DNA of 40,572 nt, taken from assembly GCF_003334355.1 (NCBI RefSeq), contig NZ_QOWP01000032.1; one strand, given 5' to 3'. Every line of letters starts with the position of its first letter. Positions within the stretch are counted from its first letter, which is position 1. The stretch is from Escherichia coli. GTDB lineage: Bacteria; Pseudomonadota; Gammaproteobacteria; Enterobacterales; Enterobacteriaceae. Position numbers and translations under genes: made by a program. The notes beneath the pieces were generated by a model. The model was not told where the DNA came from and did not search any database. It saw only the letters and a program-made list of their open reading frames with translations. Below, piece after piece: positions 3,528 to 3,566 of the stretch.

Positions 3528-3566
3528 CAGTAATCTGGTAGCTGTTAAGCCAGGAGCGGTAGCGTG
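3528..3566 (+). promoter_or_regulatory. JUMPstart element with ops-like motif (RfaH-dependent antitermination site) upstream of the O-antigen cluster
   Basis: Sequence cagtaatctggtagctgttaagccaggagcggtagcgtg is a near match to the 39-bp JUMPstart consensus; the ops portion reads AGCGGTAGCGTG (11/12 to GGCGGTAGCGTG as I recall it). Confidence 0.7.

Follow-up and report, generated by a model that had tools for sequence, protein, structure and literature searches.

RNA polymerase pauses at U11 of the 12-nt ops element, where the non-template DNA strand folds into a hairpin whose stem is C3:G8 and whose loop is G4-A7 (PMC5995543). Contacts of the anti-termination factor RfaH are limited to G4-A7, within which G5 and T6 are base-specific, and the T11-G12 dinucleotide induces the pause (PMC5995543). 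The published consensus is GGCGGTAGnnTG (Artsimovitch & Landick 2000, as cited in PMC9562583), and the oligonucleotide ops12 used in PMC5995543 reads GGCGGTAGCGTG. Here we examine a 40,572-nt chromosomal segment of Escherichia coli (contig NZ_QOWP01000032.1, hereafter the window). A preliminary description, made from the letters alone, had placed a 39-bp JUMPstart upstream of its first O-antigen gene, had noted that the ops element differs at the first base from the consensus, and had suggested that this change could modulate RfaH recruitment. The element was recovered at exactly 3528-3566, the consensus used there agrees with both the published string and the ops12 reagent, and the window ops indeed reads AGCGGTAGCGTG instead of GGCGGTAGCGTG. 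The variant is a minor allele of the textbook element, and the leader belongs to the JUMPstart family by all features examined.

Position 1 is the base pair at the upstream fork junction, with a role in pausing and in the RfaH-induced hyper-pause (PMC11001881). When RfaH docks, it twists the hairpin, and the pair at position 1, at the upstream fork, melts. G1 of the non-template strand stacks on the G before it and is held by R271 and N274 of the beta' subunit, and the freed template C1 pairs with G1 of the RNA as the 11th pair of the hybrid, which yields the hyper-paused complex (PMC11001881). A scaffold with a forced C:U mismatch at the 11th pair gave the same complex structure (PMC11001881). 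An engineered G1C change had moderate consequences. In vivo the RfaH effect was 24.8-fold compared with 35.9-fold, and expression in the presence of RfaH reached about 40% of the wild-type level (PMC5995543). In vitro the U11 pause was about 2.7-fold weaker (4.2% versus 11.3%), the anti-pausing ratio was 3.8 versus 4.2, and the RfaH-dependent delay at G12/C13 was 1.76-fold versus 5.83-fold (PMC5995543). In the same published mutagenesis G12C removed the U11 pause and still allowed RfaH recruitment (PMC5995543). An exact-string literature search for AGCGGTAGCGTG returned unrelated primer sequences only, none of them as ops, and a 2026 preprint on RfaH diversity contains nothing on ops position 1.

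The window leader was scanned with Rfam covariance models. RF01707 matched over model positions 1-38 of 38 with 53.6 bits (E 1.2e-9), above its gathering score of 35 bits. The canonical waaQ JUMPstart of K-12 scored 55.2 bits in the same test, so the window element is a match of ordinary strength. The 5-bp CUGGU/GCCAG stem encloses the conserved AGCUG loop, with zero non-standard pairs flagged. The location is also that of a JUMPstart: the element is part of the 5' leader of a long polysaccharide operon and lies on its coding strand. On the upstream side galF ends with its stop codon (3291) 236 nt away, and on the downstream side the first O-antigen gene starts after about 95-107 nt (3661 or 3673). 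Within ops, positions 2-12 match the consensus throughout, including the RfaH-contacted GGTA loop, the C3:G8 stem pair and the pause-inducing T11-G12. A at position 1 leaves agreement at 9/10 specified positions of the strict consensus GGCGGTAGnnTG and at 11/12 positions of GGCGGTAGCGTG. All bases with an assigned read-out role are canonical in the window, and the fork-junction pair alone is altered. The window element is a bona fide JUMPstart/ops leader of an E. coli O-antigen operon (Table 1).

Table 1. Coordinates of the leader elements and of the operon in the window
Feature	Position	Strand	Basis or remark
JUMPstart element, 39 nt	3528-3566	+	Rfam RF01707; reads CAGTAATCTGGTAGCTGTTAAGCCAGGAGCGGTAGCGTG
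JUMPstart stem-loop	CUGGU 3535-3539; 9-nt loop; GCCAG 3549-3553	+	Structure line of the Rfam alignment
ops element AGCGGTAGCGTG, non-template strand	3555-3566	+	One mismatch (position 1) to GGCGGTAGCGTG
ops positions	A1 3555; C3:G8 3557:3562; G4-A7 3558-3561; U11 3565; G12 3566	+	Roles from PMC5995543 and PMC11001881
Candidate operon promoter	-35 TTGTTT 3442-3447; 17-nt spacer; -10 GATAAT 3465-3470	+	Conserved block in alignment
O-antigen operon	3661-15754	+	Open reading frame list, near-identical PSS-12 locus annotation, NCBIfam matches

To determine whether A at position 1 is real, the 369-nt spacer between galF and the first gene was sought in complete E. coli genomes. It is present in 8/5426 genomes, and all eight carry A. 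Their sources were poultry, pigs and humans on four continents (USA, Ecuador, South Korea, China and Australia). A is the fixed allele of a rare O type, not a sequencing error.

Alleles were then counted by megablast, which needs an exact 28-base word, with short queries designed so that no 28-mer lacked the variable base. The counts cover five or six common E. coli sequence contexts, and their units are genomes, not phylogenetically independent events. The window 39-mer with A was found in 28 genomes, the 8 that match the spacer and 20 with a group-1 capsule locus; with G it matched 1593 genomes at 1709 places. When five further common contexts were queried with A, 24 more genomes were added, comprising 19 O15 clusters, one 'S88-variant O45' cluster and 4 colanic-acid (wza) leaders. 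With G the same five contexts occur at 12,789 places, and all 5426 genomes are represented. The query of the waaQ context found no A at position 1. Altogether the queried contexts yield roughly 14,550 E. coli JUMPstart instances, about 52 of them with A (0.36%), and the allele originated in five or more contexts. Neither C nor T was found at position 1 in the four contexts queried for them.

Transitions at the other core positions were scanned with variant sequences containing C spacers, and the positive control included in the scan found all four colanic-acid A1 genomes. G0A and G5A were each found in 1 genome and A7G in 2 genomes, compared with 52 genomes for G1A. No transition was found at positions 2, 3, 4, 6 or 8 in the E. 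coli genomes scanned. Transitions at 0 and 2-8 occur in 0-2 genomes each, which makes position 1 the softest of the core. Other species were examined in a representative-genome collection. Among the matches listed, 70/71 JUMPstart-like elements have G at position 1, the lone A1 belongs to Enterobacter sp. BIGb0383, where it lies between galF and rfbB, and positions 9-12 read CGTG in 53/71. Two core-pattern matches were found in viral contigs, both with G at position 1. The preliminary description had allowed that position 1 might turn out not to be conserved; with G at about 99.6% in E. coli and in all but one of the listed elements of other species, it is. Position 1 is strongly conserved, yet no other position of the GGCGGTAG core is as permissive, and its permissiveness is limited to purines.

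The four A1 elements from the O15, O45-variant, group-1 capsule and Enterobacter loci all match RF01707, with 49.8-55.4 bits. The loop context of the O15 and O45-variant elements differs from that of the window, as do the operons downstream; the allele therefore had an independent origin there.

The rare natural transitions elsewhere hit ops positions that are critical for function. G5A is found in the waaQ leader of one K-12-like genome (H162, strain 8A), A7G in the rfb leader of two pig isolates (H164/H165; ETEC1739 and PM4) and G0A in one genome (H161). In vitro, G5A and A7T, the latter a different change from the natural A7G, abolished RfaH recruitment (PMC5995543). The G5A, A7G and G0A strains may have lost RfaH control of those operons.

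In our judgment it is quite probable that the window element works as an RfaH loading site and that its A1 polymorphism is tolerated, with a mild weakening at most, and is no regulatory switch. Polymerase would start upstream, transcribe the leader and pause at U11, where the non-template strand would form the small ops hairpin with its C3:G8 stem and G4-A7 loop. RfaH would read G5 and T6, dock and stay with polymerase, and the docked RfaH would exclude NusG and Rho-dependent polarity across the roughly 12-kb operon. A1 would swap the fork-junction G:C pair for A:T, the pair that is expected to melt on docking and to be re-used as the 11th RNA:DNA hybrid pair. The predicted outcome is a functional site with a pause and hyper-pause that are unchanged or mildly weaker.

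This interpretation is favoured by an Rfam score that exceeds the threshold, in the location and orientation expected of such an element, and by the G1C mutant, which retains most of its activity (24.8-fold versus 35.9-fold; PMC5995543). Position 1 cannot affect sequence read-out directly because RfaH contacts only G4-A7. The A allele is fixed in the examined O15 clusters and in other polysaccharide loci, which argues that it is tolerated and that any modulation of RfaH by G1A is likely small. The proposal that the first-base change modulates RfaH recruitment is thus plausible in a weak form, through the fork junction and the pause as the moderate G1C defect suggests, but not as a change in direct read-out. 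What the element is, where it lies, how conserved position 1 is and how often A recurs are established by the data; that the element works in this strain, and how large a G1A effect would be, are inferences.

Three points weigh against so mild a role. G1C cut the U11 pause 2.7-fold and the G12/C13 delay from 5.8-fold to 1.8-fold, which leaves room for a measurable effect of G1A. G occupies position 1 in >99% of instances and C or T never does, a pattern that implies real selection there. Finally, the genome counts lack phylogenetic independence and cover five or six common contexts.

The window begins with a truncated wcaM, a short-chain dehydrogenase/reductase gene and galF (2380-3291), followed by the O-antigen cluster and then by gnd, ugd, an epimerase gene on the minus strand, wzzB and the his operon. 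Positions 1-21593 are 99.9% identical to strain PSS-12. The operon consists, in order, of a GT4 glycosyltransferase gene (frameshifted here), gmd, a GDP-mannose mannosyl hydrolase gene, manC, manB, genes for an Fcl-like reductase and an RfbH/ColD-like pyridoxal phosphate (PLP) enzyme, wzx, wzy, a GT2 gene and a second GT4 gene. The next gene past the operon, gnd, starts at 15933. The genes for the Fcl-like reductase and the RfbH/ColD-like PLP enzyme (9329-11415 and 11419-13762) adjoin gmd, manC and manB. This gene content suggests an O antigen with a GDP-linked 3,6-dideoxyhexose of the colitose type. The wzx and wzy products had zero matches among the NCBIfam O-type models. Rfam also identified two RNAs expected in this region, the his operon leader at 28284-28407 (-, 131.6 bits) and the small RNA STnc240 at 31146-31220 (+, 68.2 bits).

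A promoter-like block at 3442-3470 is common to the galF-rfb intergenic regions of the O15, O45-variant and Enterobacter loci in the alignment of A1 elements. We infer that this block is the operon promoter, and a predicted start near 3477 would place the JUMPstart about 50 nt into the leader. A scan with the generic sigma-70 consensus found zero promoters upstream of the JUMPstart; it missed this block because the -35 hexamer matches at 3/6 positions.

The first gene of the operon (GT4, 3661/3673-4778) has two unusual features. In the middle of the gene, at 4219-4258, is a perfect in-frame tandem repeat, (AAAGAC)n, which encodes a Lys-Asp repeat. The window has 6 copies, whereas six RefSeq strains that have this cluster carry 8, 8, 9, 12, 12 and 17, so the tract is an in-frame variable-number repeat. 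A poly-A tract is located at 4298-4303 in the same gene. The A6 of the window splits the gene into open reading frames 3661-4317 and 4308-4778. Five intact alleles have A7, and the A9 allele of APEC E956 carries a frameshift annotation. This length variation could be slipped-strand on/off variation of O-antigen synthesis or homopolymer sequencing error. If the frameshift is real, the untranslated stretch would be expected to raise the importance of polarity suppression by RfaH in this strain. The repeat and the frame-shifting poly-A tract are more curious than the neighbouring ops variant.

The boldest alternative combines these features with the leader. Position 1 of ops might serve as a purine-only tuning site at which the natural G1A allele, fixed in several polysaccharide locus types, measurably weakens the pause and hyper-pause and lowers RfaH loading. 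In strains such as this one it might act jointly with the first glycosyltransferase gene, itself prone to slippage, so that O-antigen output is graded or switched. We regard this combination as possible but doubtful.

Adaptive tuning by the leader alone is unlikely. Here A1 would be a selected attenuator, weakening the pause and hyper-pause so that RfaH loading is lowered or retimed for particular polysaccharide operons. The reduced pause and RfaH-dependent delay of G1C, with total expression at about 40% of wild type, agree with such a role, as do the fixation of A across whole locus types and the restriction of natural substitutions to a purine, C and T never being observed. However, the loci that carry A are unrelated and share no theme; they comprise two or three O types, one capsule type and four scattered colanic-acid leaders. 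Furthermore, no spontaneous change is commoner than G-to-A, so that recurrence by itself is no evidence of selection.

It is distinctly improbable that G1A cripples the site, substantially impairing RfaH recruitment and leaving the operon poorly expressed or reliant on other means. Conservation of position 1 above 99% is in keeping with this, and the frameshifted first gene of the window could fit a decaying locus. Against it, position 1 makes no contact with RfaH, and even G1C and the forced mismatch are tolerated. A1 is also found in five other strains in which the first gene was inspected and is in frame. The examined O15 clusters likewise carry A1, and O15 is an established, serologically defined serogroup.

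We consider it very improbable that the JUMPstart acts mainly as RNA, either as the cis-regulatory motif of Rfam or as a RirA-like leader fragment that binds RfaH, and that A changes this function. The annotated small RNA rirA of K-12 overlaps the waaQ JUMPstart and the Rfam model has a conserved stem, but A lies outside the modelled stem and the mechanism in the literature reads non-template DNA. Single-sequence thermodynamic folding of the leader with either allele gave energies no better than those of shuffled sequences (z 0.18 for A and 0.03 for G), and therefore provides no RNA-structure argument. An artefact, whether a chance motif match or a sequencing error that affects a single base, is refuted by the E value of 1.2e-9 at the canonical location and by the same base in 8 independent complete genomes.

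A second match to RGCGGTAGNNTG was found in the window at 18899-18910 (+) and reads AGCGGTAGCATG. The chance expectation for this pattern is about 0.08 matches per window. The match is antisense within the epimerase coding sequence (18763-19767, -), downstream of a hairpin terminator that follows ugd (about 18720-18745), and has neither a JUMPstart 5' half nor an Rfam match. The surrounding 71 nt are common to 68 genomes, including O111 strains. As a candidate second ops it was rejected, and the match is probably due to chance.

The mechanistic weight of the A1 variant is small, and the element is expected to work like other JUMPstart/ops leaders. Its practical consequence is that regulon searches with the strict GGCGGTAGnnTG miss genuine A1 leaders, among them those of the O15 clusters, the group-1 capsule type and the window O type; RGCGGTAGnnTG is a safer search pattern. 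The census of natural variation also provides an in vivo tolerance ranking of the ops core, in line with the structures and mutagenesis in the literature. By this ranking, variation at position 1 far exceeds that at positions 0 and 2-8, and extends to a purine only.

Among the known leaders close to the window element are those of K-12 rfb and waaQ, whose ops reads GGCGGTAGCGTG. They share the 39-nt architecture, the stem, the 3' ops and the position in the leader of a long lipopolysaccharide operon, and differ at ops position 1, which is G in K-12 and A in the window. The O15 clusters and the one 'S88-variant O45' cluster have the same ops allele AGCGGTAGCGTG downstream of galF. They differ from the window in loop context (TGTAAAG versus TGTTAAG) and in their operons. 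In the O15 loci an ISAs1-family transposase gene (L131/L132, 9185-10321) lies directly between the A1-type JUMPstart and wzx, so that the O15 leader reads into an insertion sequence before the O-antigen genes.

The group-1 capsule (wzi-wza-wzb-wzc-wbaP) JUMPstart of 20 E. coli genomes also has A1 and an otherwise identical 31-nt core. It differs from the window in its ops, AGCGGTAGCGTC, which has an additional C at position 12, and in serving a capsule locus instead of an O-antigen locus. This double variant is located at 13994-14032 of L004 (E. coli MEI008) and is found in 19 other genomes. The 5' part of the JUMPstart is CAGTAAT in the window and CAGTGCN in the O15, O45-variant and group-1 capsule loci. 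The engineered G1C ops (Zuber et al. 2018, PMC5995543) changes the same position as the window variant and is the sole experimental read-out there. G1C is a transversion, and its assays used a plasmid lux reporter and a T7A1 template, whereas G1A of the window is a natural transition.
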